Made by a program: the position numbers and the translations under genes | Assembly (NCBI RefSeq): GCF_001447785.1 | Contig: NW_015172015.1 | Coordinates: forward strand, 309,418-373,417 | Direction of reading: 5' to 3' | DNA: 64,000 bases | Origin: Gekko japonicus | Taxonomy: Eukaryota | Shown: positions 2 to 47,137 of the stretch, piece by piece | How positions within the stretch are numbered: position 1 is the stretch's first letter | How the letters are laid out: the number at the start of each line of letters is the position of its first letter | The notes under the pieces: model-generated | Seen by the model: the letters and a program-made list of their open reading frames with translations, nothing else | Told to the model about the DNA's origin: nothing | Database searches by the model: none

Positions 2-1834
2 CAGACGAGAAAAAACAGGGCAGCTCGTCTACACTTGGCCCTGATGGAGAAGGCATTATCTCCACAGTCCTCTTCGCCGTTAGACACGTCCGGGCACGCC
101 TCGATGTCTACCTTGGCTGCGGACACTTGTCCTCCCGTTCCGGGATCATCGACGTCGACGGTCGCAATCGATGCTTCGGCACCGAAACGATCGACGCCGA
201 TAAAGGACCACCCCGTACCTTCCAAGATCCGGAAGCAGGGGTCATCCGTTGCCGTACCTTCCAAGATCCGGAAGCAGGGCAAAGACTCACAGCAGTCGAA
301 GAAACCTAAAACGGACAAACCCAAAGTCCATAAGGTTTCGGCTAGTCAGGGTCGAGATCCCACGCAAGAACCTCACCCGATCGGTTCGGATCTCGACATC
401 GACCTTACTCAACAGACAAATCAGTCGCAATCTGATATGTCGAGCCGTCAATCCTCTCATGCCTCCCCAGAACGTGGAGTCGAGGATCGGCACCGACCAA
501 CTTCTCCTCCCCTGACTTGGGATGAGAGGCAATGGCATTATTTGTACGGGAATCGATACCCATACCCTTGGGCACTCCCGATACCACCCCCACCTGAATG
601 GGATCGTCAGTCGGTGTCATCCCGCATTTCGCGCTTTCAAGATCGACCATCGGTATCGAAGCAGTCGATACCGACGCATCCACCAGACCCGGTTGTGCCC
701 CCGATTAACACACCGGCACCGTCTCAACCTGAATTACTCGAATCATCTCCAGAACCATCCAATGTATCCTCCGATTCAGATGGCTTTTCTGAACATATCG
801 AGGATGTAGATGCACAGCCCACCTCGCAAGATGTGGAAGCGGATTTACCTATTTCTCCATCAGAGGATGTTAAGTCTTATGGAGATTTTATTCAACGCAT
901 GGCATTAGATCTATCTATGACTCCTACTCTCGTTGCCAGTTTTGTGGATGATAACGTTTTTGACATTATGCACTCTAACACTTCGCCCTCCGTGGCTCTA
1001 CCAATGACAAAAGTTCTCTTGCAAACTACCAAGGACTTTTGGACTCGTCCAGCCTCCATTAATGTCTCTAATAAGCGTCTGGATCACATGTACAAGGTCC
1101 AGGAATCAGGGGCTGAGTTTTTATACACACACCCAAAGCCCAATTCTTTGGTCGTCTCCTCATCCACAAAAGGAAAAGCGAGTCACTCTACTCCCTCAGA
1201 AAAAGAAGGGAAAAAGTTGGATTCGGTTGGTAGAAAATTCTACACTGTCGGTGCAATGGGCATTAAAACGGCGAACTATGCCGCCTGCATGGGCCGTTAT
1301 CAATTCAATTTATGGAAGCGTTTGAATGATTTCCTCCCGCACGTGCCCAAAGAGTGCCAACCTCAGATTAAAAGGATTCAGAATGAAGGGATGGTCTTGG
1401 CTAGACACCAAATTAGTGCTGCCAAGCATTCCCTGGAATCCGCTAGTAAGACTCTAGCAACCTCTGTAGCGTTACGCAGACATGCCTGGCTCCGCTCTTC
1501 ATCATTGCCATATGACACCAGATCCTCGGTGGAAGACCTTCCCTTTGAAGGTTCTGGATTGTTTAGCTCCACCACTGACACGGTTCTGCAGGAAATGGAT
1601 AAGAGTATCAAGACGTCCAAGAGTTTGGGGATCTCCCCCACGACCAAATACTCGAAATCCAAGCAGTGGCCTAGGCAACCTTGGTCGACCAGGCAACCGT
1701 ACAACAAATCACCTACGGATCAATGGCAAAGACCTCCCTCCTCTCAGTCACGGTCTTTTCCCCCGAAAAATAAGGGACAATCGTCCGGTGCCTATAAGTC
1801 GAAATTCCCTAAGAATCCCAAACAGGGACTTTGA
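2..1834 (+). CDS. DIRS gag-like ORF1 (5' partial; frame is open to the window edge)
   Basis: Frame reads QTRKNRAARLHLALMEKAL from position 2; low-complexity S/P-rich middle; C-terminal region with RRHAWLRSS...DLPFEGSGLF typical of vertebrate DIRS gag (LAP2alpha-like domain). Confidence 0.85.
   Translation, partial: QTRKNRAARLHLALMEKALSPQSSSPLDTSGHASMSTLAADTCPPVPGSSTSTVAIDASAPKRSTPIKDHPVPSKIRKQGSSVAVPSKIRKQGKDSQQSKKPKTDKPKVHKVSASQGRDPTQEPHPIGSDLDIDLTQQTNQSQSDMSSRQSSHASPERGVEDRHRPTSPPLTWDERQWHYLYGNRYPYPWALPIPPPPEWDRQSVSSRISRFQDRPSVSKQSIPTHPPDPVVPPINTPAPSQPELLESSPEPSNVSSDSDGFSEHIEDVDAQPTSQDVEADLPISPSEDVKSYGDFIQRMALDLSMTPTLVASFVDDNVFDIMHSNTSPSVALPMTKVLLQTTKDFWTRPASINVSNKRLDHMYKVQESGAEFLYTHPKPNSLVVSSSTKGKASHSTPSEKEGKKLDSVGRKFYTVGAMGIKTANYAACMGRYQFNLWKRLNDFLPHVPKECQPQIKRIQNEGMVLARHQISAAKHSLESASKTLATSVALRRHAWLRSSSLPYDTRSSVEDLPFEGSGLFSSTTDTVLQEMDKSIKTSKSLGISPTTKYSKSKQWPRQPWSTRQPYNKSPTDQWQRPPSSQSRSFPPKNKGQSSGAYKSKFPKNPKQGL
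213..279 (+). repeat. 28-bp direct repeat, 39-bp period, in gag (VPSKIRKQG twice)
   Basis: ccgtaccttccaagatccggaagcaggg at 213-240 and 252-279. Confidence 0.9.
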
Positions 1835-3710
1835 CTTCAACCTTACTGCTCAGACTCGCCTTGCACCCTTCCTGCACGCATGGCTCGCCATTTCTACGGA
1901 CAAATGGGTGCACTCTATAATAAGAGATGGCTATCTCATAGAGTTTTCTCTGACTCCCAGAATCTCCCGTTTCATCAGAACCCCGGCGTCTCCTGCCCTG
2001 CTACAGGAGGTACAATCGCTGACACAAAAAAACGCTATAGAGAAAGTCCCGATGGCGGATTGTTGCCGCGGGATTTATTCCAAATATTTCACAGTCCCCA
2101 AGAAGGACGGAGGACTTCGTCCAATCATGGACCTCCGTTTTCTCAATCGGTTCATCATTTACAGAAAGTTTCGCATGACCACGTTGCAAAGCATTTTACC
2201 ACTCCTGTCTCCAGGGACTTGGATGGTCACTTTAGATCTCAAAGACGCTTATTTTCACGTCTCCATCCATCCTCGTCACAGAAAGTTCCTCAGATTCGCA
2301 GTCGGGGAGGACCATTACCAATTCAAAGCCCTTCCATTCGGGCTCTCTACCGCCCCCAGGGTTTTTACGAAGGTAATGGTGGTTGTCGTCGCTCATCTTC
2401 GCCTTCAGGGCATTCAGATCTTTCCGTATATAGACGACTGGTTGATGGTGGCAGATTCAAGAGAATGTCTCCTTCAGCACATCACCATCACATTGTCGGT
2501 CCTATCCTCCCTTGGAATTCTGGTGAATTTACAGAAATCCATGCTGCAACCTGCAACTCGCGTGCAGTTCATAGGAGCTGTCATAGACTCCCTAGCCACT
2601 CGGGCGTACCTTCCTCGCCAACGGGCAGATACCATTCGTCTGGAAATTCAACGTTTGTTCCAGTCCAACGTGACATCAGCGGTCCACATTCAGCGGACCT
2701 TGGGTCTCATGGCAGCCACCACTTCCGTGATCGAATATGCACGCCTTCGCATGCGCCCGTTGCAGCTGTGGTTTCTAAAGAAATTTCGCCCTTCCATCCA
2801 TCCTCCGAGCCTTCAACTGGTAGTGCCTCCGCAGGTCCTCGTCTCCCTGCAGTGGTGGCTCGTGGACACCAATCTGTTGGCGGGTGCACCGTTCCAACCG
2901 ATCGTTCCCGTAATGTCCATCACCACAGATGCCTCCCTGTGGGGTTGGGGTGCTCATACAGACGACACTTGTGTGGGTGCTCCATGGCAACCCCTTTGGA
3001 AGAGTCATCATATCAACTATCTGGAACTGCTGGCCGTAAAGTTTGCCCTAAGATCCCTACTCAGACAGGTTGTAGGGAAGGATGTGTTGATTTTTACGGA
3101 CAACACAACTGCGATGGCTTATATCAATCGCCAGGGCGGGACCGTGTCCAGGTCCCTTTGCAGGCTAGCTATGGACATATGGGAAGAGTGCCTTCATTGG
3201 AACATCACTCTCCAAGCTGCCCATCTGCCAGGAACTTTGAACCAACAAGCGGATTTCCTGAGCAGAGGGGGAGCATCGGACCACGAATGGGAGTTGAACT
3301 CAAAGTATCTCCTTCCTCTTTTTCAACATCTGGGACATCCCCACATCGATGTTTTTGCAACTCGATTGAACAAGAAGTGTCCCAGGTTTTGCTCCAGAGC
3401 GGGGTTGGACCCTCTGTCAATGGGGGACGGTCTGTTGATGTCGTGGGCTCACGACTTTCTATACCTATTTCCTCCGATTCCGCTGCTCCACAGGGTGCTT
3501 GTGAAAATACAACAGGACAAGCCCCATTGTCTCCTGGTAGCCCCCTGGTGGCCTCGGCAGGTGTGGTTTCCGACACTGCTGCGGTTAGCCAAGGGATCCT
3601 TCGTACACTTCCCGCAGGAGTTGGATCTCCTCCAAGCTCAGGAAGGCCAGGTCCTTCACTACGATCCTCTGAGTCTCAAGTTGACTCTATGGGAAATACG
3701 CTTTCAGTGA
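1482..3710 (+). CDS. DIRS pol: reverse transcriptase, RNase H and C-terminal adenine-methyltransferase-like domain (true start uncertain; homology begins about 1833)
   Basis: RLAPFLHAW, KKDGGLRPIMDL, LDLKDAYFHV, LPFGLSTAPRVF, YIDD; RNase H TDASLWGWG, HINYLEL, TDNTT, NQQADFLSR; MT-like IDVFA...YLFPP...APWWPRQVWF. Confidence 0.95.
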   Translation: MPGSALHHCHMTPDPRWKTFPLKVLDCLAPPLTRFCRKWIRVSRRPRVWGSPPRPNTRNPSSGLGNLGRPGNRTTNHLRINGKDLPPLSHGLFPRKIRDNRPVPISRNSLRIPNRDFDFNLTAQTRLAPFLHAWLAISTDKWVHSIIRDGYLIEFSLTPRISRFIRTPASPALLQEVQSLTQKNAIEKVPMADCCRGIYSKYFTVPKKDGGLRPIMDLRFLNRFIIYRKFRMTTLQSILPLLSPGTWMVTLDLKDAYFHVSIHPRHRKFLRFAVGEDHYQFKALPFGLSTAPRVFTKVMVVVVAHLRLQGIQIFPYIDDWLMVADSRECLLQHITITLSVLSSLGILVNLQKSMLQPATRVQFIGAVIDSLATRAYLPRQRADTIRLEIQRLFQSNVTSAVHIQRTLGLMAATTSVIEYARLRMRPLQLWFLKKFRPSIHPPSLQLVVPPQVLVSLQWWLVDTNLLAGAPFQPIVPVMSITTDASLWGWGAHTDDTCVGAPWQPLWKSHHINYLELLAVKFALRSLLRQVVGKDVLIFTDNTTAMAYINRQGGTVSRSLCRLAMDIWEECLHWNITLQAAHLPGTLNQQADFLSRGGASDHEWELNSKYLLPLFQHLGHPHIDVFATRLNKKCPRFCSRAGLDPLSMGDGLLMSWAHDFLYLFPPIPLLHRVLVKIQQDKPHCLLVAPWWPRQVWFPTLLRLAKGSFVHFPQELDLLQAQEGQVLHYDPLSLKLTLWEIRFQ

Positions 3711-5914: not shown

Positions 5915-6257
5915 CCGTTCTCCCTCTGAGGTGGAGGACATCTCCATGGGTTATTCCCATCCTTCCTTTAGGGAGGTAGGAAACACTTTTTTCACCTTCC
6001 TCTTGGCGCCTTGGGAATAGCCCGCCTTCAGTTCTATTCCTGCCTCTTAGGGAGTAGCAGCTAGGGTCAAGGCTCTGTTTTCTTGACTGAATTTCTTGCA
6101 CTTTTGCTAAAAACTTTTTACCTTTTTTCTCCCTTCTCAATCTCTCCTGCTTGTTTCCTCTATATCTGCTTCTATCTTTTTCCTTGCCTGCTCATCAACA
6201 AGAGTCAAGAGCGGCGAGGGAGTTCCGTGGAGGACGAATGCTGCTGCATTAGAGAGA

Positions 6258-7899
6258 TGGCGATGGGAGCAGAGCACTCAGACCATTTCTCCTTGGCTGA
6301 GGATGAAACATTCGCCGCGGTGGCTGTCAGTGAGACCAACTGGCCCTCCGGGCTTGCTTGTGCCTCCCCAACGGACCCAGCAGGGGCAGCGGCGGCGGTG
6401 CGGAACACACAGAAGTGCCGCAGGACACGAGAAGATGCAGAGTCCGGCAAAATTGGCTGGATGAAGACAAGTGGTGGCCATCTTGGATTGGTGGCACGGG
6501 AGTTCGGCGATGGCAAGATTCCTCTGATGGGCATTCAACAGTGCATGGGAGCCAGTAAGACCCCCGATACGTGTCTCCCCAGGCCTGACCCACTTCCCGG
6601 GGGGGGGGGGCAATTCCCGGCGCTACAGGGGCCAAAATTTATTCCTTCAATTTAATGAGGTTCTTTAGACAGGCCATGCAGGAGGAGATGTCCTCCTTTT
6701 GTAACAAGATAGGACTCACTGGACAAGTGGGTGCCCAGGTCTACCCATCTCAAGGCCCCTCTCCCTGGCCTACCAAGGCAGCAAAGAAGGCACCTCCCAA
6801 TTCCCACAAAAGGCATAGAGGGGAACATAGGGAGGAGGAGGAGGATTCTTCCGTTTCCAACGTTGAAGACAGGAAGGAGGGCGAATTCCTCTCGGAGGAG
6901 GAAGATGAAGAAATGAAAATTCCAGAACAAGTCAGTAGATTCTTTAAGGCTGAGGATTATCAGTATTTCCTCATCAAGGCCATGAAAGCCCTAGAGATTC
7001 AGGATTCCCCGGCTATTGAAGAGCAGGGCATATTAAGCCCAGATTTAAGTTTCATTCCAGGGGGGTATCTGAATCCTCCCCCCCCCCGAGGAACTAGTTG
7101 AGAACGGTGTCTTCCCATTCCCTGAATATTTTGAGAGATAGCTCAGAATGGCTTGGGACAAACCAGCAGCAAACAGTTTCCTGGGTTTGTAAAAAGGTTA
7201 TATGCCTTACCTTCATATGCAAATGAGCTTTTACAGGTACCACTTTTACAGGCAGCCATCCAATCCACAGGCCTTGTCTCGGAAGATGGGCACGGATCCA
7301 TACGGGACCCGATTGACAAGAAGGTAGACGCCACACTCAAGAAAATTTATGAGGCCGTTACCATGATGGTGAGAGCGGCAGCTACTACTTCTATAGCCTC
7401 CAGAGCATCAATTGTCTGGATCCATAAATTAATCCAGCTATTACCAGAGAGCCTCCTTGAGGGCACCTCACACATTCTGAAGGGCGCCTCCATCTCTGCT
7501 GACGCCACTCTGGACATTTTAGCCTTTGCTTCTACTAACATGGCCAGATGCCTGCTCTGGCTAAGGGCCTGGCAGGTTGACTTCCAGTCAAAGCTAATGG
7601 TATCTGCCTATCCGTTCCAGGGAGATAGACTCTTTGGTGACGCCCTTGACAGAATTCCTGTGGAGACTCGTGACAAGAAGAAGGCCATGCCGAGAAACTT
7701 TTGCCAAACTGAACGTCAGAACACGCATTCCTTTCGTTCCCAACACACCTTGTCCAGGTTCCGTCAGGACCAGAAGAAGGGCAATTGGAGTACATCCAAG
7801 ACTTTCAGTTGAAGGGGAATGTTCAATTCCAAATTCCACAAGCCTCTAATCAACAGAGCTGACCAAGGGGACCAAGATTCCAAACCCAAGCAACAATGA
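6258..7899 (+). pseudogene. DIRS copy B gag (disrupted; start approximate)
   Basis: RCLLWLRAW...YPFQGDRLFG motif; frame of ORF 7153 continues past a stop at 7810 to TGA 7897-7899. Confidence 0.75.
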
Positions 7900-9790
7900 C
7901 TATGCGTCCCTTCCCGTGGGGGCACACCTTCTCTCCTTCTCTGCAACCTGGACAGTATCACAAGCAGATGTCTGGGCACAGGAGGTGGTGTCCCACGGCC
8001 ACACGATAGAATTCCGTCACCCCCCTCCAGAAAGATTCCTGGTCTTGCCTGTCAGCAAGTCCATTGCCAAAAGAGCCTTAGTAGACAGGGCACTCCAACA
8101 TCTGCTGGCCATTCGGGCCATAGAGCCTGTTCCCCTGACAGAACGAGGTCAACGGGGTCTACTCCATTCTCTTTCTGGTCCCCAAGAGGAACAGCGACTG
8201 GAGGGCCATTTTGGACCTGAAATTCCTCAACAGGTTCATTCGGCTTCACCACTTTAGAATGGAGACGCTCAAGTCTATCACAGAGACCTTACTGCCAGGT
8301 GACTATCTAACCTCCATAGACCTCACAGAGGCCTATCTCCACGTTCCCATCCATCAGACACACAAGAGGTTCCTCCGGTTTTGTGTCGGACAAAGCCATT
8401 TTCAGTATCGAGCACTGCCGTTCGGTCTTTCAAGTGCACCTCGGCTGTTTTCCAAGCTCCTCATCAATCCAGTAGTTCACCTCAGGAAACAGGGAGTTCA
8501 CATTCACCCCTATTTCGACGACCTGCTGGTGAGGGGCAACGACCTGAATTCGGCCATCCAAAACACTTCAAGGACAGTTCAGTGTCTACAAGAACACGGA
8601 TTCATAATCAACCTTCAGAAGAGTTGTCTGTGTCCATCGCAGAAAATCGAGCACCTGGGAGCAATAATAGACACGGAGTGCAATTCGCTCTTCCTGCCCT
8701 TAGACAAGGCTGTCAAGATTCGAGACATGGCTGGCTCGGTGATTCAGAGTTCTTCCACTCCCCTGATGTCATTGGCCAAGCTACTGAGTCTAATGGTCTC
8801 CTGCATAGACCTGGCTCAGTGAGCCCGTTTCCACTCCAGGTTGCTTCAGTGGTTTCTCAGGTTATATCAGCACCAGATTATGGAGCGCAAGTTTGTGAAT
8901 CTACGCGTCACGGCACAAGTCAGCCTTCTCTGGTGGACATCTCTACAGAACTTGAGGCAGGGCAAAGTATACTATGCCCCATTCTTCAAGGAAATTTTTA
9001 CAGACTCCAGTCTCATGGGCTGGGAAGCAATCCTGGAAGGAATTCCGGTCCAGGGACGTTGGTCCAGGGAGGAACAAAGTCTCCCTATCAACTTGCTGGA
9101 GCTAAGAGCAATCTGCAACACCCTCAATCATTTCAGTTAGGCGATTCGCAGGCAGCACGTTTTGGTCCGAACGGACAACATCTCAGCCAAAGCGTATCTC
9201 AACAATCAGGGTGGTTCCAGGTCCTCTCGACTGCATTGGGAAGCTGTACAGATCCTCAGTTGGGCCAAGAAGAATGTGACGACACTCCAGGCCGAGCATG
9301 TGAAAGGAGTTACCAACGCCCAAGCGGACTGGCTCAGCTGGGAAACCATTCTAGAGGCGGAATGGGCACTCCATCCGAGGGTATTTCGACTTCATTGTGC
9401 AACATCTTGGTCGACCATTGGTGGATCTCTTTGCTTCACCAGAGAACCATCAAGTTCCTTGGTTCTTCTTGAGATATCATCATCTGGAAGCGGAAGCGAC
9501 GGATGCCCTCACTGCTGCCTGGCCCCAGGGGCTTTTTTATGCGTTCCCTCCACTTCCATTGATACCCAGAACCATCCGTCGGATCTGGGAGGAGAGGGCA
9601 CAAGTCATCCTGGTGGCCCCCTGTGGGCAAGGCGCCCCTGGTATTCAGCGCTGTTGGAGCTGGCCATCCTTCCTCCTCTACCTCTGATGAAGTCTGCGGA
9701 CATGCTGCTGCAGGGACCAATCTGGCACCCCCATCTGGAGTGGCTCTGTCTAACCGCCTGGAGATTGAGCGGCAACAGTTCTCCCAGCTG
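7898..9790 (+). pseudogene. DIRS copy B pol (RT-RNaseH-MT), with frameshifts and stops
   Basis: PVGAHLLSFSATW, IDLTEAYLHVP, LPFGLSSAPRLF, YFDD, TDSSLMGW, INLLEL, TDN, VDLFAS...YAFPP. Confidence 0.9.
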
Positions 9791-10832
9791 GGTTATTCTA
9801 CACAGGTGATGGATACGATGCTAGCCTCCAGACGACAATCCACCATCCATATATATAACACGACCTGGAAGGCCTTTGTCAGATGGTACAGGAGGAAGAA
9901 GGTCAACGCTGTCCTCCACAGTGGCCTCGGTGTTAGCCTTTCTGCAAGATGGTCTGGATTCCGGGTTGAAGGTCCCCACTCTTCGCAGAAAGTCAGTGGC
10001 ATTATCTACTGTCCTTCCATTACTGGGAGGATATAAATTAACCAAACACCCGCATCTCCAGTTGTTTCTACAGGGAGCGTCTGCCAAGTCTCCACCACAG
10101 GTCCATCGGTTCCCTGCGTGGAAACTAAACACAGTCCTGACTGCTCTGACCAAGTCTCCCTTCGAGCCTCTTAGGGAGGTTTCCTTGAAGTGGCTAAGAA
10201 TGAAGACACTCTTCCTGGTGGCCATAACATCGGCACATCGAGTCTCAGAGATTAGTGCCTTCTCTGTCAAGTCTACGCTGTGCGTCTTTCACAAGGACAA
10301 AATTGTCCTCAGGATTGATCCTACCTTCCAGCCAAAAGTGTTGTTCGTTTTCCACCATTCTCAGGAAGTCTACCTACCTTCATTTTGTCCTAATCCTAAG
10401 CACCCTAAAGAGGTCCTGTGGCATAAGCTAGACATTAGGCATGCTCTGAAGATTTACATCCTCAGGACGGAACCAATCAGGAAGACGGACTTTATGTTCA
10501 TCAATATATCTCCACACAGAGTAGGTGACAGCATGTCCAAGACGTCAATCAGCACGGTTCTTAGATCCTGCATATCAGAGGCCTACGAGGCAGCTGGCCT
10601 GGAGGTTCCTAAAGGGATCACGGCACATTCCCTGAGGAGTGCTTCCACCAACACAGCCTTTTCAAACCAGGCGACAGTCGATGAAGTGTGCAGAGCAGCA
10701 ACCTGGACTTCCATCTCTGCGTTAGTCCGGCACTATAAACTGAACACCTTTGCCTCTGCTGATGCAGCATTTGGAAGAAGATTCCTTCAGCACATCCTGA
10801 CTGCAACTGACGATGACGACTCACCCAAATGA
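9770..10832 (+). pseudogene. DIRS copy B tyrosine recombinase (one frameshift near 9910)
   Basis: SAHRVSEI, AHSLRS, LVRHY. Confidence 0.9.
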
Positions 10833-10853
10833 GGGACACTGCTCTGGGAGGTT

Positions 10854-10942
10854 CCATGGAGATGTCCTCCACCTCAGAGGGAGAACGGCCATTGGCACTT
10901 ACCATGAAGGGTCCTTCTCCTCTGAGGTCAGGAGGACATCTC
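10854..10942 (+). repeat. DIRS copy B ICR
   Basis: 10854-10888 is the exact reverse complement of 5915-5949; 10889-10942 is the near-exact reverse complement of 11245-11298. Confidence 0.93.
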
Positions 10943-11303
10943 GGCCCTCCCGTATTTCATTGTCTTCTCTATCTGTTGGTGCTGATCTCTTCTTCCTTCT
11001 GAGTTTTTCTCTTTTCTTCTGTCAGGCCATCTGTACTCAAGGGGGATCAGCACAGTGACTGTAATATAGTTCAAGTTAACAATGTTATCAGAGTTTTCTG
11101 TCCCTATACAGGAGAGTTAGTTTTGGTTAGAGTTTACTGCTTGCGGAGTCCCAGAACTGAAGGCGGGGCTATTCCCAAGGTGCCAAGAGGAAGGGGAAAA
11201 AAGTGTTTCCTGCCTCCCTAAAGGAATGATGGGAATAACCCATGGAGATGTCCTCCTGACCTCAGAGGAGAAGGACCCTTCACAGTAAGTGCCAATGGTC
11301 GTT

Positions 11304-12270
11304 TTAGCATTAAACACTTTAAGTGCAGCTGGCACATATTGGTTACCTCAATCAGAGAAAGCGAGAAATTGCCGCAGCACTAACTTTAGCTACATTAACA
11401 GCCATTCTGCGATGATAGGTCCAAGTAGCACTAGATTGAAAATAAACACCCAAGTATTTAAAGTGCTTGACCTATTCAAGTTTATTACCATTAATAGTCC
11501 ACTTATATGATTTTTGGGAATAGGGAAAGAATAAGGGAGTTAGGGCCCATATCTCCTGTAGAAGAACAATATCAAAGGAATTAAAATAGTCTATAAAATC
11601 ATGATCTTTGGCCTTGCTCCTCCATCCTGCTATATTCCTGGAGACAAGTTTAATTATCATGGGTGGAGAGCTATCCAGAAGTCAATTCATCTCAACTAAT
11701 TGATCTAAGGAATTGTTCTCATCAAAATTGACACATCCATTGCTAATGGTACCAGCATACTGGGAGGAGTCCTTTTTGCCTAAAAACTTAAAACTAGAAT
11801 CACCCCCCTCCCTTAGTACAGATGGAAAAATAGAACCAAGGGGCTCAGATTGATGAACTACTGCTTGGACCTGACACTCGATGTTAACTGAAGGAACTTT
11901 ATCCCCGGTCATTGAGCTAAAGGAGGAATTGGGCTTATCCAACATGTTTTTTAAAATATTAGTTCTTGCGACTTCCGGGCTGTCTGTGACCAACTTTTGC
12001 TCAGCCAGTGGAAGAGCCTTAAAGGATTCCAGAACTTCCTCATCCAATAGCTATCCATAAGGCAGGAGCTGGAAATAGAATCATTCCCTGTTCTTAGATC
12101 TTTTAGTGCATAAGGAGCATGAGCACTAGAGTCAGTCGCTACAGGATTATTGTTAAGCACAGTAGGTCGAATTATATTATCCCACTCTCTCTTAGAGTAA
12201 GAAAACATAGGCAGCAAAGGAGTTAAAAACATGTCCTTAAAAACATGGATAGGAAAAATTCCTTTAGAGT
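11304..12270 (-). pseudogene. 5' part of the same non-LTR element interrupted by DIRS copy B; endonuclease N-terminus joined to late RT
   Basis: MIIKLVSRNIAGW...DIVLLQEIW (APE start, 11660) runs into KWTINGNKLE.VKHFKYLGVYF (RT end); ORF1-like fragments upstream. Confidence 0.65.
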
Positions 12271-12273
12271 TAA

Positions 12274-12537
12274 GAAGAGAAGAAGAGATTGGATTTATAC
12301 CCCACCCTTCACTACCCAAAGGAGTCTCAGAGCGGCTTACAAACTCCTTTCCCTTCCCCTCCCCACAACAGACACCCTGTGAGGTAGGTCTCTGACAGAA
12401 ACTGCTCTTTTTCAAGAACAGCTGTGCCAGAACTACAGCTTGCCCAAGGTCATCCAGCATGTGCAAGTGGAGGAGTGGGAAATCAAACCCAGTTCTCCCA
12501 GATTAGTGTCTGCGCACTTAACCACTACACCAAACTG
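12274..12537 (-). mobile_element. tRNA-derived SINE, Squam3-like
   Basis: Minus-strand A box TGGTGTAGTGG, B box GGTTTGATTTCC, (CTT)n tail; closely similar to 42221-42506. Confidence 0.8.
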
Positions 12538-13077
12538 ACTTAACTTTCCAAAATGTGTTGTTCAGGGATTTGTCAGCTTACATTTCTGCGGGAGCATGGC
12601 TTCACTAATATACAAATTAAAGACATGCTGTAAAATACAAATATTTCTTAAGTATCATCAGCCCTAACATTAGTGTGCCATTTCTTCTGTTTGACCAAAA
12701 TCTTGCTGATCAGAAAGAATTTTTTTGGAAAAGTGAATGGATACAGACCAATAATTCTGACATAGGACTTCATTAGTGCTTTTCATTATCAATATTGCAT
12801 GGTGAAGAGAAAGTATGAGTAATGCCCAAAGGATAGGATGCTAGTTTGAAGAGAGAACTCCATGAAGAATAGGAACTCTTGTATATAAAAATAAAATTAT
12901 TAGGATATTAGTAAGAGTTTTCAAAGCAGTATATCTGCCGTCGGAGAGAACTGTGGCTGACCGGGGCGTGACATTGATAGTGGAGTAGGAGGATGTCAAT
13001 TTCCCTAGCTCCCTTATCCCCTCATCCTTTACCCTCTAAAATAATACAAACCGGACATCAAAATCATTTCACAGAGC

Positions 13078-14035
13078 ATGGGAAAATCTGTTCAACAGAA
13101 GGCTAAACTGATCTCAACAGAATCAAAAGCAATAACATCCTTTTTCACTTCAAAAACGCCTGGAGAATCCCGGCCTAGAATTATGGACCTAACAACTAAG
13201 ATGGCTGACAAGATGGAAATGGCAGCATCTCAAACGGACGTTTTGATGAAGCAAGATCTACATGACTCACTGAAAGCATTTAAAAATTGGATACTGTTAC
13301 TGAGATCCTTAAGCCACTGACAGAACAAATAAACTCTATGCAAGCAAACCTTCAAAAAATGTCACAAACTGCGGAATGGCAATGGAAATGGGGCAGACAC
13401 ACCAAACTGGAATCCAACAATTACAGCACCATGAGGGGTGGGCCACAGAAAAAAATTCTACCTCAGAAATAAATTAAAGGAATGGAATGTTAAACTACGA
13501 GGTTTTGCCGAAAATGTGGAGGAGTCGGCGGATCTGGCCAGCTTTGTTGTGACATGGCTCTCTAAGGCTCTCCAATTACAGGAAGGCATAACACCCCTGT
13601 GCATAAAGAATTGGTGCATTATACTCAGCTCGCATGAGAGGCCTGAGAGACATAATTATAGAACTGGCAGACCTCTGTGTAAAGAGAAAATTATTACAAC
13701 AAGCTAGAGTAAGGGGTGGCCTCACCTTCCAGGACATGACTATTATGGTTTTCCCAGATTTGTCATCAGAAATGCTGCAATTCTGTCATTCCTTAAAGCC
13801 AATTACTGCAAAACTGAGAGAGGCTGGCATAAAGTACCAGTGGTCACCACTAGGGAAATTACAAGTCTCCTTTCAAAATAAAAGCAAACAAGCATCAGAC
13901 ATCGAAGAAGACTACAATCTACTGCATGGGTTCGGCATAGAAGTCCCCTATGAAGCCGCAAGGAAATTGCAAAAAAGGAAACTTGATTCACCAGCAACTC
14001 CACAGAAGTGGAGCAAAATCCCCATCATAAATTAA
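13078..14035 (+). pseudogene. L1 ORF1 (frameshifted)
   Basis: NVKLRGFAE, RDIIIEL, VFPDLSSE, LREAGIKYQW motifs of L1 ORF1 RRM/CTD. Confidence 0.8.
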
Positions 14036-18608: not shown

Positions 18609-19036
18609 CAAGGGTGGCCAAACTGCAACTTGGGAACCACATGCGGCTCTTTCACACATATTGTGTGGCTCCCAGCAGGATGGCTGGGAAAGGGGAATCA
18701 TGCCTCCCCAACAGGTCTTCCCTTCCCTAGCCAGTGTCCCCCCCCCCTCGGAGCAGAGAAAGAAAGCAACTTTAACTTTAAATGTGTTCTCAAAGCCCCC
18801 CCCCCCCCGGCCGGCTTAGAGAAGACATTTGTCTCTTTAAATATCCTTATCAGTATCTGTTTTTACCCCTTTTGTTTTTATTTCTGGCCATATTATTTAA
18901 TGTTAACGTTAATAAAAAGCAAATTTGCATATTTTCCAATAAAAACGTGTGTAATATTTGTTCATGTCTTGCGGCTCTCAGACATCTGATGTTTCTTCAG
19001 TGTGGCTCTTACGTTAAGCAACTTTGGCTACCCCTG
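18609..19036. mobile_element. hAT-superfamily non-autonomous DNA transposon (MITE), copy 1
   Basis: TIRs CA(A)GGGTGGCCAAA / TTTGGCTACCCCTG; 8-bp TSD tcctatac at 18601-18608 and 19037-19044. Confidence 0.9.
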
Positions 19037-19110
19037 TCCTATACAGACTTTGAGAAACTATTAATTCAGAAGCAGACTCCTGTTAAAAATCTTACATCCA
19101 AAATCTATAC

Positions 19111-20232
19111 CAGGGGTGGCCTAACTTGTATAACGTAAGAGCCATATAGAATAAATGTCAGATGTTCGAGAGCTGCAAGACATGAACAAATATTACACAC
19201 GTTTTTATTGGAAAATATGCAAATTTGCTTTTTATTAACATTAAATGAGACTGCGAAGAGGTAAAGATATTGATAATGATATCTATTTGTCCAATGATAT
19301 TTATTTGTCTAAGAGAGAGAAAGAGAGAGAGAGGTGGAAAGAAATAATGAAAGAGGTAGAGAGAAAGAGAAAGCGAAACAAAGCAAATATATGGGGAGGG
19401 AGGAGAAGGAAGGAAGAGAGAGAAAGGAAGGAAGAAAGGGAAAAAGAGAAAGAAAGTTGGAAAGAAAGCAAATAGATGGGGAAGGAGACAGGAAGGGGGA
19501 AAGAGAGAGAGAAAACAAAGAAAGCAAATTGGATGGGAGGGAGGGGGAAGAAGGAAGGAAGAGAGAAAGAAAAAAGAAAGCAAATGGGGAGGAAGGAAGG
19601 AAGAGAAAGAGAAAGGTGGAAAGAATGAAAGAAGTGGGACGAAAGAAGGAGCGAGAGAAACAGAAAGAAACAAATAGATGGGGGAGAAAAGAAGGAAGGA
19701 AGGAAATAGATGAGGGAGGGGAGAAAGGAAGGAATGAAGAGAGAGAGAGAAGAAGGAAGGAAAGGAGAAAGAGAGAGAAAGGTGAAAAGAAAGAAAGAGG
19801 TTGGAAAGAAAGCAAATAGGGGAGGAAGGAAGGAAGCGGGAGAGAGAGCGAGAGAGGTGAAAAGAAAGCCAATAAACGGGGAGGGAGAAAGGGAGAGGTA
19901 GAAAGAAAGCAACTTTAGCTTTAAATGTGTTCTCCAACTCCCACCCCACACCCCATGACAGCTGGCTTGGCTTGGAGAAGTTATTTAAAGCGACAGATGC
20001 CTTCTCCAAGCCGGCCTGCGGGGGGGGGTGCTTTGAGAACACATTTAAAGTTGCTTGCTTTCTATTCCCCCCCACCTGAAGCCTGCCGAGGGAGGGGAAC
20101 ACTGGCAGGGGAAGGGAAGACCAATCAGGGAGACATGCCTCCCCTTCACTTCCCCAGCTGCCCTGCTGGGAGCCACACAATATTTGTGAAAGAGCCACAT
20201 GTGGCTCCCGAGCCGCAGTTTGGCCACCCCTG
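19111..20232. mobile_element. hAT MITE, copy 2, opposite orientation, with internal purine-rich expansion
   Basis: TIRs CAGGGGTGGCC / GGCCACCCCTG; 8-bp TSD atctatac at 19103-19110 and 20233-20240. Confidence 0.9.
19310..19910 (+). repeat. Polypurine (GA-rich) low-complexity tract with recurring GAAAGCAAATAGATGGGG units
   Basis: Direct reading of the sequence. Confidence 0.9.
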
Positions 20233-41831: not shown

Positions 41832-43712
41832 ATGACTCCCTTTGGGGTCTTCGATGGCCTACAAAGCCCTGTTAAAGAAATGCATACAGTGTGCAACCAA
41901 AATGACCTGCAGCGATGAGCATGATCTGTGCCTGATATGTTTGGGAGAGTCCCACAATGTGACCTCCTGTAAGATTTGCCAGGGGTTTACCCCTGAAGAT
42001 TGCTCTGACAGGGCTTTTTGACTAAAGGCGGCTCTTTGGGAGAAGGCTCTCATCTCCCTCAAACCATCCAAATCAGGTCAGAAATCAGATCTGGTGAAGG
42101 CACCGTCCTCAGTTCATTCGGCCCCTTTGGTTCCCATTCCAGAGCCCTGTTCCAGCCCCTTGTGTGTATGTTCAGTTCCAAAGGGCCCAGCAGCGACCAA
42201 ACTTCATTCACAGCTAAAGAGAAGAAGAAGAAGAAGAGATTGGATTTATACCCCACCCTTCACTTCCCAAAGGTGTCTCAGAGTGGCTTACAAACTCCTT
42301 TCCCTTCCCCTCCCCACAACAGACACCCTGTGAGTAGGTGGGGCTGAGAGAACTCTTGACAGAAACTGCTCTTTTTCAAGAACAGCTGTGCCAGAGTTAT
42401 GGCTTGCCCAAGGTCATCCAGCCAGGTGGAAGTGGAATAGTGGGGAATCAAACCTGGTTCTCCTAGATTAGAGTCCGCGCACTTAACCACTACACCAAAC
42501 TGGCATCTAAAGATGTCTACATCTATGGTCTTGTCCTTGGCTCTGATGCATCCTATCTTGCCATCACCTTCACATCCCATTCCGGCTTCTAGTTCACCGG
42601 AACCCCCTTTAAAGAAGGCGAAGAAAAGCAAACACAAGGAAAAGACAACCTTTTCCTCTGAGCATCATAGGAAATCATCTTCTCCACCTAGATCCCCCTG
42701 GAATCTGATGTCATTTTGGTCCCTCCTCATACTCTGTCGCTGGACTTATACTTCCCGGACATGCAGATGTCAGAGGGTGAAGGAAAATGAGCTAGCCCTC
42801 CACTTGAGGACCCATTGTCTCTCAAGCTGGAACTGTCAAGACCCATTCTAAGGATGTAGTTGAGCCCTCCACAGTGGCATCCTTACTATATGTCCTCTAC
42901 CTATCTACAACAGTGGCCTGATTTTTACTCTCAACATCCTCACCTTGGTTCACCAGGTTATGGTCCCCCCAGGGAGAGTTTTGGTCAACAAGGATCTCAG
43001 CTTCATATGATACCTTCAGTGTCTCCAGAGTCTGAATCTGAAGAAGAAGGAGCTGTTGTCTCTTGTTTTAGCTCAGAGAGTCAATCTGAAACCTCCCCAG
43101 ATGGTAGGGTGGGGGATTCCACTCCTGTCTCTCCAAATGAGGATCTGTGCCTGTATGGTGAACAAATGTTAAGGATGGCTAAGGCATTGGAAATAGATGT
43201 CACGACATCCGATAACAAGCCCAAAGATAAGATTTTGAGCCATCTCTACTTGGATTCTCTGGGCATTGTGGCCTTTCCTGTTCTACAAAGCCTGGCTAAT
43301 CTCTCATCTCGGGTATGAGAGAAGCCCGAATCTATTCTGGCAACTTCGTGTAGGGTTGAAATGCTGTACAAAATCAAGCAGGACTCTTTCAAGTTTCTGG
43401 CAACCCATCCTCCACCTTTCTCCCCTGTCACCAAGGAGATGCAGTCACGTCAGAGGCAGGGCAACATTTGTCTCCATCAGACAAAGAGAGTAGACATCTA
43501 GACTGTTCTGTAGCCTTGAATTGCCAGGCTATCATGCTACCCCCTTCTATTGCAGCCTGTGTTAGCAGCATCAGAGTGTCCCCCAGTATCTTCACCGCCA
43601 CTACCAGCCTCCTCCTTTTCAAAAAAGGGAGAGCTTGACTTGACCTAGATCAGGAAGCCACCAGGTTCCGCAGAGGGACCCGAGTCAGCAGCAGCAGCAG
43701 CAGAAGTTCTGA
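41832..43712 (+). pseudogene. DIRS copy C gag remnant
   Basis: N-terminal KKCIQC...DEHDLCLICLGESH..TSCKIC finger, LKAALWEKAL, PVSPNEDL...RMAKALEI; ends QQQQQKF-TGA. Confidence 0.75.
42221..42506 (-). mobile_element. Squam3-like tRNA SINE inserted in DIRS gag
   Basis: A/B boxes on minus strand, (CTT)n tail, 7-bp TSD ctaaaga at 42214-42220 and 42507-42513. Confidence 0.85.
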
Positions 43713-44787
43713 CTAGAGGTTGAGCCCTAATCAGAAGCCCCCTTCTTTTGGGATAGGCTTGCCTGCTTTTATGCAGAGTGGCAGAGTATCTGTTTGGATA
43801 GTTGGGCTTTAACCATAGTTCATACCGGGTATTTTTTAGAGTTTACTTCGCTGCCCTCTTGCTCCTCTACTATAGCAGCAGCTGACAACCCGTTCCCCAA
43901 GCTCCAGGTGCAGCTTCATGAACTTTTGCAGAAAGGAACAGTTGAAAAAGTTTCCTCTGGCCTTCAAGCTCAAGGTTTTTGCTTCTTGACAAACAAAGAT
44001 GGGGGATGGGGGGCCATCTTTGATTTGAGGAGATCAAATAACTTTTTGAAAGTTTCAAATTTCTCTTTCACCAGTTGTGGAATTTCTTACTCTGGGCTTT
44101 TGTTTTGGGGTAATAGATCTTAAAGATACCTATTTCCACATAACCATTCATCCCGCACATAGGAAGTACCTCCACTTTAGGCATGGTTCTGAGGTTTTAC
44201 AGTATTCTTCTCTTCCCTTTGACCTAGCCACGGAATCTAGGGTTTGTACCAAGTGCATGGCTGTGGTGGTGGCACATTTGAGAACTCAGGGGTATGTCAT
44301 TTTTCCCTACTTGGATGACTGGCTCATTGTAGCTCCCTCCAGGGAACATGGGATGTCAGATATAAATTGGGTTTTGGTGACCTGCCAAAGGCTAGGGCTG
44401 GTAAGTTTGATTCTAAGAGACCTGCCCCGGGGTGCCCCAGGATCAGTAAACCTTGTGTGGTGGAATGAGGATGATAACCTGTTCAAAAGTGTTGGTTTTG
44501 GATTTTGGGTGCCAGAAACGACCCTTACCACTGAGGTGTCCTTGACAGGATGGGGAGCACATTGTGAGGGCCTTTCCGTACAAGGAAAATGGTCTTTGCT
44601 GAGCAGGGAGCTTCATATCAGTATTCTTGAGCTGCTAGCAGTTCATTTCGCCCTTACTTCCCTCGCAGATATTCTCCAGGGCAAGAAGGTCCTAATTCAG
44701 ACAGACAACACAACCTGCATGTTGTATTTAAAGAAGCAGTGGGGAACGGGATCAAAGACCCTGTGTGCTGGGAAGTGGCTTTCAAGA

Positions 44788-47137
44788 CACTAGGCAGGGC
44801 TGCCCTTTGTCCCCATTGTTGTTCGTGATAGCGATAGAACCCTTAGCAAATGCAATTAGGTAAAACCAAGATATCCATGCAGTAAAAATGGGGGGGGGGA
44901 TACATAAAATCAGCCTTTTTGCAGATGATTGTGCAATTTATTTTACTAACCCTTATGACTTGCTGAATTATCTGAATGATACTATAGCTCAGTTTTCTTT
45001 GGTATCTGGTCTATGTGTCAATCTCACGGAAACGGAAATTTATCCTGTTTTTCTCACATCGCAAACAGTAAAGCTAATCAAAAGGAAATTTAGGTATAAG
45101 TGGCTAGATAAACCATGGAGATCTCTGGGGATAATGATTCCACAACGCCTAGAAGAACTTTTTGAATGCAACCACAAAGCAGTGCATAAAAAGATAACTC
45201 TTAAAATAAAAGCATGGAGCACACAATTTTTTTACATGGACAGAGAAGCTTGATCTTATCAAGAGTATGCTCTTTCCACAATTTCTATTTCTTTTTCAAA
45301 ATGTTCCCATTCAGATTCCATCTAAGACCTTGAAAATTTGGCAATCCACTCTTAATTTTTTGTGGAATAACAAGAGACCAAGAATAGGGTCTAAACTTCT
45401 CAGTTGTCCACTGGACATGGGTGGTTATGGTTTTCCAGATCTGTCTAAATATTATGAGGCTGCACACTTAAGAAATCTCTTAGCCTATTTTAGTCTGGAT
45501 GACATGGGGGGGGGGGTTGGAAATAAAAAGTGATTGCCCGTGTTTCATTGGAGATATAGTTTGGGCTTCCCCCAAAAATAGACCCTGTGAGGTCAAATTA
45601 AACCCCTTCCTGGATGCTACTCAAAATGTTTGGGATGCACACAGAAAAACCTTAGCCCCTGGGATATCTCCAGCATCATCTTTCCTAGGGCAAGCTTGGT
45701 TTCCCCCAGGCAAGTCTTTAGCAGAATTTCATGTTTGAAGGAAAGCTTGTTAGACTTCGTGATATAACAAATAAGGGTATTATGAAAGAGAAATCTCAGT
45801 TAGAACAAGTAAGTTCTATGAAGATTCCATGGTATCAGTATTTTCAGGTGAGGCATTTACTTAGGTAATGGTAAAGGTTTCTCTTGCTCGAAAGCCAGTC
45901 GAATCCGACTCTAGGGATGCGGTGCTCATCTCCGTTTCCAAGCCAAAGAGCCAGCACTGTCCAAAGACGTTTCTGTGGTCATGTGGCCGGCATGTAGACG
46001 CCGAGCACATGGAACACTGTTACCTTCCCACTGAAGTGGTACCTATTTATCTACTTGCAATTTCTTCCTTTCGAACTGCTAGGTTGGCAGGAGCTGGGAC
46101 TAGAGATGAGAGGTCACTCCGTCATGCAGCACTTGGGTCTCGAACTGCTGAACTACCGATCTTCCGGTCTGCAGTTTCAGCATCTTAACCACTTGAGCCA
46201 CTGAAGCCCCAGGCATTTACTTACAGACCCAGTAATTTGATGGGGTCTTGAAAGGCCTAGCACAGAATTTGAGCGTCTAATTACACAATGGAAAGTAGGT
46301 AATAGAGGGCTCATTACAATGATTTACAAGTGGTTAAATGATAAATATTGGACAAAACCAGCAAATTATCAACAACACTGGCACCAGGATTGTGCAATGG
46401 ATGTCACTGAGCATCAGTGGGCAAAAATTTGGTCATCTACAGTCTCTCTAACGAGAGCTATTAATATATCGGTAAGTATCCAACTCTGAAAAATTGTTCA
46501 TAGATGGCATCTCACTCCATTACGTTTGCACCACATTTCACCCTCACATAGCCCCAATTGTTGGAGAGGATGTGGGCAGCCTGGTTCTTACATTCACTGC
46601 TGGTGGACGTGCCCTGTAATGGTGTAATATTGGACCACTATTTTTTAACTGATTTATGACATTACTGGGCACAATATCCCTATGAGGCCAGAACTTGTCT
46701 TGCTTAATTTATGGGGTGGGATAGATGTTCATGCTGTCAGGAAAGATCTCATTTCTTATATGTTGGTGGCAGCCAAGACTTTAGTGGCTAGGCATTGGAA
46801 AAATAGTAAACAACCCTCATCAATTATGTGGTTTAATAAGTTATGGGAATACCTAGTCATGGACAAAATATCAGAAGTTATAACCTTGGCAGAGAATCCA
46901 GATTTTTTTAAACACTGGTTTCCCTTTTTTGAATATATGGAAAGACATAGTAAGCTGAAAAAGGGACTTCCAGAGAATTTGAAGGTTATAGCTATATGCT
47001 GAATAGCTGTTTGGTTTTATTGCTCTTGTGTTTTCTGTATTTTTAATTCTGTTTTTATTGTAGCAGTTTCCTAATAGTATGTGCTACTGCAAATCGTTGC
47101 TATATTATATAAATAAAGGTTATTTATTTTTTAAAAA
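44788..47137 (+). mobile_element. 5'-truncated L1 inserted in DIRS RNase H
   Basis: Starts at [12 protein letters not shown], then LFADD, GGYGFPD, CWRGC...HCWWTCP, AATAAA and A-rich end. Confidence 0.88.
45864..46210 (-). mobile_element. Sauria SINE, full-length, inserted in the L1
   Basis: Perfect 13-bp TSD aggcatttactta at 45851-45863 and 46211-46223; ACCTTT-type tail; homologous to 31538-31764. Confidence 0.92.

Follow-up and report, generated by a model that had tools for sequence, protein, structure and literature searches.

A conserved TGA-CT at the gag stop of DIRS1-like retrotransposons is a candidate site for readthrough into the recombinase and a +1 shift into pol

In two lineages of DIRS1-like retrotransposons represented in a 64,000-nucleotide stretch of Gekko japonicus DNA (the window), the gag frame is closed by a TGA followed by CT. 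The sequences themselves establish a conserved motif, the layout of the frames around it, a lead-in to the tyrosine recombinase (YR) that is free of stop codons and the lack of an ATG for pol. Based on these features, TGA-CT would form a three-way switch, at which translation would mostly terminate with release of Gag, while a share of the ribosomes would read through into a lead-in of ~630 codons to give Gag-linker-recombinase and another share would shift by +1 at the same stop to give Gag-Pol. Readthrough of TGA-CT to give Gag-recombinase seems probable. For Gag-Pol made by shifting +1 at this stop the chances are even or marginally better, and the combination of the two at a single stop is evenly balanced. 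The features are listed in Table 1.

Table 1. Positions of the DIRS features in the window.
Feature	Position	Strand	Remarks
Copy A, young family	1 to ~5130	+	39/40 scored matches 100% identical over 501 nt
TGACT junction, copy A	1832..1836	+	no stop in frame 0 for 962 codons, as far as the recombinase end; pol in +1
Copy B, DIRS1-like retrotransposon, 5.4 kb	~5915-11303	+	inverted terminal repeats (ITRs) and an internal complementary region (ICR), LAP2alpha-bearing gag, RT, YR
Left inverted terminal repeat	5933..6023	+	91 nt, 96% complementary to 11166-11256
gag-like ORF1, copy B	6257..7899	+	frame interrupted by frameshifts and stops; position of start approximate
TGACT core	7897..7901	+	TGA 7897-7899, closing gag, and the CT behind it; candidate for a leaky and shifty stop
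pol, copy B	7898..9788	+	RT, RNase H region, methyltransferase-like motif; opens in +1 at GAC
Lead-in (linker), copy B	7900..9904	+	in gag frame, overlapping pol, reaching recombinase
Tyrosine recombinase domain, copy B	9909..10832	+	
Internal complementary region	10854..10942	+	two arms, 10854-10888 and 10884-10942, overlapping at 10884-10888
Right inverted terminal repeat	11166..11256	+	pairs with 5933-6023
Copy C, third DIRS copy, decayed	near 41.6-48.5 kb		
TGA-CTA junction, copy C	43710..43715	+	pol in same frame as stop

The site lies in copy B, where it reads CAA (7894-7896), TGA (7897-7899) and CTA (7900-7902). An earlier note on this DNA had taken the gag frame to end at this TGA. The letters are correct and, as seen from the relatives, this is the gag stop of the family, although it is not the working stop of copy B itself, in which gag is already interrupted at 7099, 7123, 7132 and 7810. 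The +1 frame does begin with GAC and enter the conserved RT motif as the note described, reading DYASLPVGAHLLSFSATW from 7898. The stop that it placed upstream in this frame, at 7847-7849, is present in copy B but is decay specific to this copy, being a sense codon in 6/6 relatives compared. No ATG separates that position from the RT motif, the +1 frame being free of ATG from 7350 to 9361, and frame 0 is indeed open for more than 80 codons past the stop (7900-8217, 106 codons). The copy is dead as an element, and the signal of the family is preserved in it.

The assignment of the copy B frames is consistent with a DIRS1-like element. ORF1 has a LAP2alpha Pfam match of 27.2 bits (cut-off 25) and the gag is 57% identical to that of a relative, L141. 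The pol matches RVT_1 above the Pfam cut-off (E 5e-20) and aligns by tblastn to the pol of L141 over 7898-8152 and 8154-9788, with a frame break near 8130-8155 and further stops later; the first ATG of the pol frame is at 8259, within the RT domain. A Pfam search for a methyltransferase domain after the RNase H gave no match; DLFAS and YAFPP motifs, which we take to be methyltransferase-like, are present. The recombinase is 77% identical to that of L141, with a Phage_integrase match (E 4.6e-4) under the curated cut-off. Copy A gives no Phage_integrase match and the family D element L211 passes Phage_int_SAM_1 (Pfam); the YR homology and the overlap with pol are established. Even in this decayed copy the lead-in is mostly still open, in ORFs at 7900-8220, 8303-9472 and 9563-10036. 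The ICR is complementary to 5915-5949 and 11245-11303, matching both ends of the element, and its arms overlap at the circle junction. No long direct repeats of the split Ngaro type were found in copy B, which has inverted repeats instead. Its closest relatives are no more than 90% identical, and the RNA reads on it (598, 35 and 213, with a depth at the junction of ~1-5) are too thin to inform. An ATG at 7896-7898, overlapping the stop, was considered as a re-initiation site and rejected: its frame is the third one and stays open for just 37 codons, and it depends on an A found in 40% of copies.

Conservation of the motif was examined at 93 loci of the A and B lineages, which gave 74 distinct junction windows, the tallies being samples of the best-scoring candidates of each search rather than censuses. 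TGACT stands at the end of gag in 70 of the 74 (66 at the anchor and four displaced by a neighbouring indel), while three of the others are one base off TGACT and one has no site. Since TGACT occurs in 5.5% of similar-sized windows (304/5508), this is far beyond chance. Grouped at 90, 85 and 80% identity, the junctions make up 53, 41 and 30 clusters, respectively, and kinship among clusters means that p-values overstate their independence. Among 67 TGA junctions, the +4 base is C in 66 and the +5 base is T in all 67, so that TGA-CT is found in 66/67; with the +6 base included, TGA-CTA is found in 49/67. The codon before the stop is of 14 kinds, with GCA in 19, AAT in 16, GCG in 10 and CAA in five of the 67 in the copy B lineage. 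The CAA-TGA-CTA architecture of the earlier note is thus upheld in its TGA and the CT that follows, but not in its CAA, and the variable preceding codon beside a fixed CT indicates that the signal is TGA-CT. The +5 T is invariant while the second residue of pol varies between Y, F, S, C and L. In each of the 11 relatives whose pol and lead-in are both unbroken, gag ends in TGA-CT; at control stops of the same 11, TGA-C is found at none of the recombinase ends and at one of the pol ends. In one decayed copy, L157, the gag stop has been lost, giving a fused frame of 1187 codons that is broken further downstream.

Pol lies in the +1 frame relative to gag and its conserved part starts 8-10 codons past the stop. 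There is no ATG in the pol frame through codon 12 in 40/67 junctions, and no ATG position is shared by more than five of the 67, so a conserved initiator is lacking. In 5/11 relatives the first pol ATG is codon 121, and RVT_1 begins near codon 88-90.

Frame 0 past the stop leads to the recombinase. The earlier note had associated readthrough with the RT motif that it quoted; in-frame readthrough instead leads to the tyrosine recombinase and pol needs a separate +1 step. Pol and lead-in are both unbroken in 11 of the 45 elements examined, most of them chosen for their long pol frames, and in all 11 frame 0 runs 962-979 codons past the stop to the end of the YR, the ~630 codons before the recombinase being free of stops. 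The first ATG in frame 0 is at codon 16 in three of these relatives, 17 in three, 84 in one, 228 in three and 346 in one. When pol was re-drawn synonymously in 38 elements (11 own and 27 metagenome, selected for long frames), 8-25 stops per 300 codons were predicted in the lead-in frame and never fewer than two, and the third frame carries 13-39 stops in the same comparison. For 13 of the 38, none of 300 re-draws was free of stops even as far as the first ATG. Between elements the lead-in shares 22-34% identity and the pol encoded by the same DNA 38-72%, so that the lead-in is kept open rather than conserved in sequence. Openness with neither a fixed start nor much sequence conservation is, we infer, what would be expected of a conduit for ribosomes arriving from gag.

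The frames are arranged differently in other families. The copy B lineage is a second, divergent DIRS lineage with the TGA-CT stop, as the earlier note had it, its pol being 38-39% identical to that of family A on a long separate branch. In the A lineage the codon before the stop is CTT or TTT; the protein search with family A was filled by near-identical copies. In the young family D (L211:3197-3203) a gag frame of 675 codons ends in CCG-TGA-CTA-G, a junction common to 12/12 copies, with pol in the same frame and its first ATG at codon 117. Here the +1 frame is closed immediately and 300 codons of the -1 frame contain 16 stops, and from this layout readthrough would be the simplest route to Pol. 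The YR frame of family D contains 19 stops before opening near pol codon 368; the first ATG is codon 38 of that frame, and a heptamer slip site was looked for but not found for the family D recombinase. Of 49 windows of families C and D, 22 have TGACT in frame with pol, eight have it out of frame and 19 lack it, the copies of both latter groups being decayed. With pol in frame in C and D, the motif is kept where no Asp is needed in +1. In a tree of 52 rows made by a quick method, lineage B stands well apart from A and D, and no fewer than three changes are required for the in-frame-pol layout.

Several further observations were made on these copies. The gag of families A, C and D opens with a Cys/His-rich zinc-finger-like stretch, seen from L061:3801 on, upstream of the first base of the window, and at window 41860-42000, and lineage B gag is without one. 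A peak of RNA depth lies over the family A junction at L061:5774-5960 (window ~1774-1960), where 125 reads diverge from copy A at L061:5950; a related family seems to be most similar right there. A SINE-like repeat is present in two similar copies, at 12234-12530 and at 42230-42505, the second inserted in the gag of copy C. Fragments at 13045-14035 (ORF1-like, 13-14 kb) and 44800-47130 (an insertion interrupting copy C pol) presumably belong to a LINE-like family. The stretch 19001-20000 has strong GC skew (0.53) and AT skew (0.48) and is probably a simple repeat.

The pattern was also seen in metagenome elements. A scan gave 80 loci. Anchoring succeeded for 76 of them, which fall into 62 clusters; the call was clean for 42 of these clusters and not for the other 20. 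Each of the 42 has gag, one stop and a long frame, with the YR in the gag frame in 39 and pol in three. The stop at these junctions is TGA-C in 19, another TGA in nine, TAG-G in 10, TAG-C in three and TAA in one, compared with two TGA-C, 10 TAG-G and 15 TAA among the terminal stops of pol and YR in the same elements (n=62). The difference gives Fisher p values, uncorrected for kinship, of 2e-7 for TGA-C and 0.002 for TAA; TAG-G is about equally frequent in the control stops (10/62). A pol-frame ATG ahead of the conserved motif is absent from 22/39 clusters and present in 17/39. TCC or CCC precedes the stop in 12/39 against a background of 6.7%, rising to 18/39 when TTT, AAA and CTT are added, the list of shift-prone codons having been chosen after the data were seen. 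These codons are scattered over several separate branches of the tree.

In three metagenome elements (L263, L291 and L320) gag, stop and pol are in frame and a recombinase frame in -1 is also open from the stop, with open lengths of 979 and 1000 codons and that of L291 reaching the end of the scanned stretch; these are either a mirror layout or single-copy indels. A search of viral contigs for the pattern gave 62 matches, none confirmed. Long natural Gag-recombinase fusions gave five matches in 2797 candidates, four of them named as host genes, and are uninformative. Reptile and frog gene models for DNAJC13, collagen IV alpha-3, DOCK7 and BRCA2 (P0001, P0003, P0004 and P0005) carry DIRS recombinase sequence, probably as mis-called exons.

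The stop contexts found here are those of known readthrough types. UGA followed by CUA or CGG (type II, alphavirus) and UAG-G (type III, gammaretrovirus gag-pol) are described as such, and readthrough of UGA-CUAG is reported in mammals, in the sections consulted of PMC3542737 and PMC4615788, in agreement with the earlier note's description of UGA-CUA as a readthrough context. The elements show the type II arrangement, with UGA followed in most by CUA and an open frame beyond. Most viral cases of the UGA-CUA type are accompanied by 3' structure according to the part of PMC3542737 consulted, whereas no consistent 3' structure was found here: the mean z was -0.55 in 14 own elements and -0.59 in 21 of the 42 metagenome elements, and z-scores of 70-nt windows, which cover local folds only, were no better than those of control windows as evidence for a 3' stem-loop stimulator. 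In the 21 metagenome elements the lowest folding z-scores fall immediately upstream of the stop, over 70 nt (mean -1.33, with 48% under -1.5), a minimum absent from own-genome elements. Family D, with gag-UGA-CUAG-pol in frame, can be likened to gammaretroviral gag-pol, but uses UGA. In the A and B lineages, unlike types II and III, the predicted product is Gag-linker-recombinase and not a polymerase.

For the +1 step, the closest likeness is to antizyme, where ORF2 also begins in +1 at the stop of ORF1. The shift sites of antizyme include UCC-UGA, CCC-UGA and GCG-UGA-C, the last being shift-prone in budding yeast owing to a yeast-specific tRNA (PMC5009743, relevant portion). By analogy, the enrichment of TCC and CCC before the metagenome stops would match these sites and favour the shift. 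Against it, the codons of the copy B lineage (GCA, AAT, GCG and CAA) mostly give little +1 re-pairing, so that this lineage is mostly without shift codons, and in contrast to antizyme this stop would need to leak in frame as well.

Within the element class, the DIRS1-like elements described in PMC3266345 and in Xenopus (bioRxiv 10.1101/2021.08.05.455354) share the three ORFs (LAP2alpha gag, RT/RH/MT and YR), the ITRs, the ICR and the long overlap of pol and YR; the portions consulted describe the overlap and do not address translation of pol or YR. The elements studied here differ from those descriptions in having the YR in frame with gag, its frame beginning precisely where gag stops. For Ngaro, a frameshift in the short pol-YR overlap has been proposed for YR expression (Poulter and Butler 2015, as quoted in the part of PMC13003380 consulted). 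The order of elements is the same and recoding is suggested for the YR in both, but here there are ITRs rather than split direct repeats and the YR frame runs from the gag stop. DIRS layouts and readthrough or shifty-stop contexts are also treated in bioRxiv 2021.04.08.439009, PMC7192593 and PMC5633606, again consulted in excerpt. Recoding at a DIRS gag stop was not described in the portions of the literature searched, and the reviews of Poulter and Goodwin may mention an in-frame stop.

The alternative that fares best, although it is unlikely, keeps readthrough to the recombinase and has Pol made by a shift elsewhere (+1 or -2 within the last 65-120 codons of gag) or by non-AUG re-initiation just past the stop. 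The slip-poor codons preceding the stop in the B lineage would favour this, as would a pol frame that is open upstream of the stop for a median of 75 codons (67 junctions), but such openness is as predicted from gag composition (36 elements, combined p 0.56) and so is explained without selection, and none of 18 upstream positions examined is more than 90% conserved. A near-cognate codon is found at pol codon 7 in 51/67 junctions; however, L154 and L156, whose pol is unbroken, have GTC or GTA there, the A lineage is without the site, and the Pro codon preceding codon 7 is ~90% conserved, which suggests that it is translated.

Somewhat less likely again is that pol, the recombinase or both are expressed from spliced RNAs, with TGAC as a branch point or intronic. 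TGAC resembles the branch-point consensus, and acceptor-like sites occur within -300 to +90 of the stop in 13/17 elements, but their place and phase differ and they are absent from L061, L160, L214 and L211. An AG 10-45 nt behind the branch-point-like A is not conserved at any position, the best being 17/67, and a branch point with a conserved acceptor at the stop was rejected on this count. Ahead of the recombinase, an AG also recurs in 13/15 own elements, its end lying 26 nt inside the FPP motif (as YAG in 8/15, and as the first AG in 8/37 metagenome elements); this is probably no acceptor, the AG being accounted for by a pyrimidine-rich motif with an Arg codon beginning behind it. No spliced joint was found in 5750, 92 and 1969 raw RNA reads on the full family A copy, although the reads are 3-12% of three runs from one study, come from both strands and mostly from other copies, so that a rare splice could escape. 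Nothing was listed in the output of four runs beyond a single strand-switch joint and some skips that were confined to contigs and lacked GT-AG ends. In addition, TAG-G junctions cannot be branch points, and splicing would not maintain 630 open codons.

Finally, it is very improbable that there is no recoding and that expression of pol and the recombinase begins from promoters within the element and from ATGs further downstream, with TGA-CT inherited by descent or imposed by overlapping frames: GAC could encode a required Asp of pol and a frame-0 ATG is present at codon 16-17 in 6/11 relatives, but that ATG accompanies a conserved Trp of pol and is absent from the other five, an RT begun at codon 121 would miss its first motifs, family D keeps the motif although its +1 frame stops immediately, and the junction stops are unlike the terminal stops of the same elements.

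How DIRS elements make a pol that has no ATG, and their recombinase, and why these two have an overlap of ~2 kb, is left unexplained in those parts of the literature that were examined. For DIRS1-like elements generally, it is a possibility falling a little short of even that a single stop sets how much Gag, Gag-linker-recombinase and Gag-Pol is made from one RNA and, as part of the same proposal, that the long pol-recombinase overlap serves as a ribosome conduit, with lineages swapping the gene reached by readthrough through a one-base change of phase. ORF calls based on ATG would on this reading truncate DIRS proteins. If both outputs were true, this would be a natural vertebrate stop codon with simultaneous readthrough and frameshifting, and it would offer dozens of natural variants for mapping the rules.
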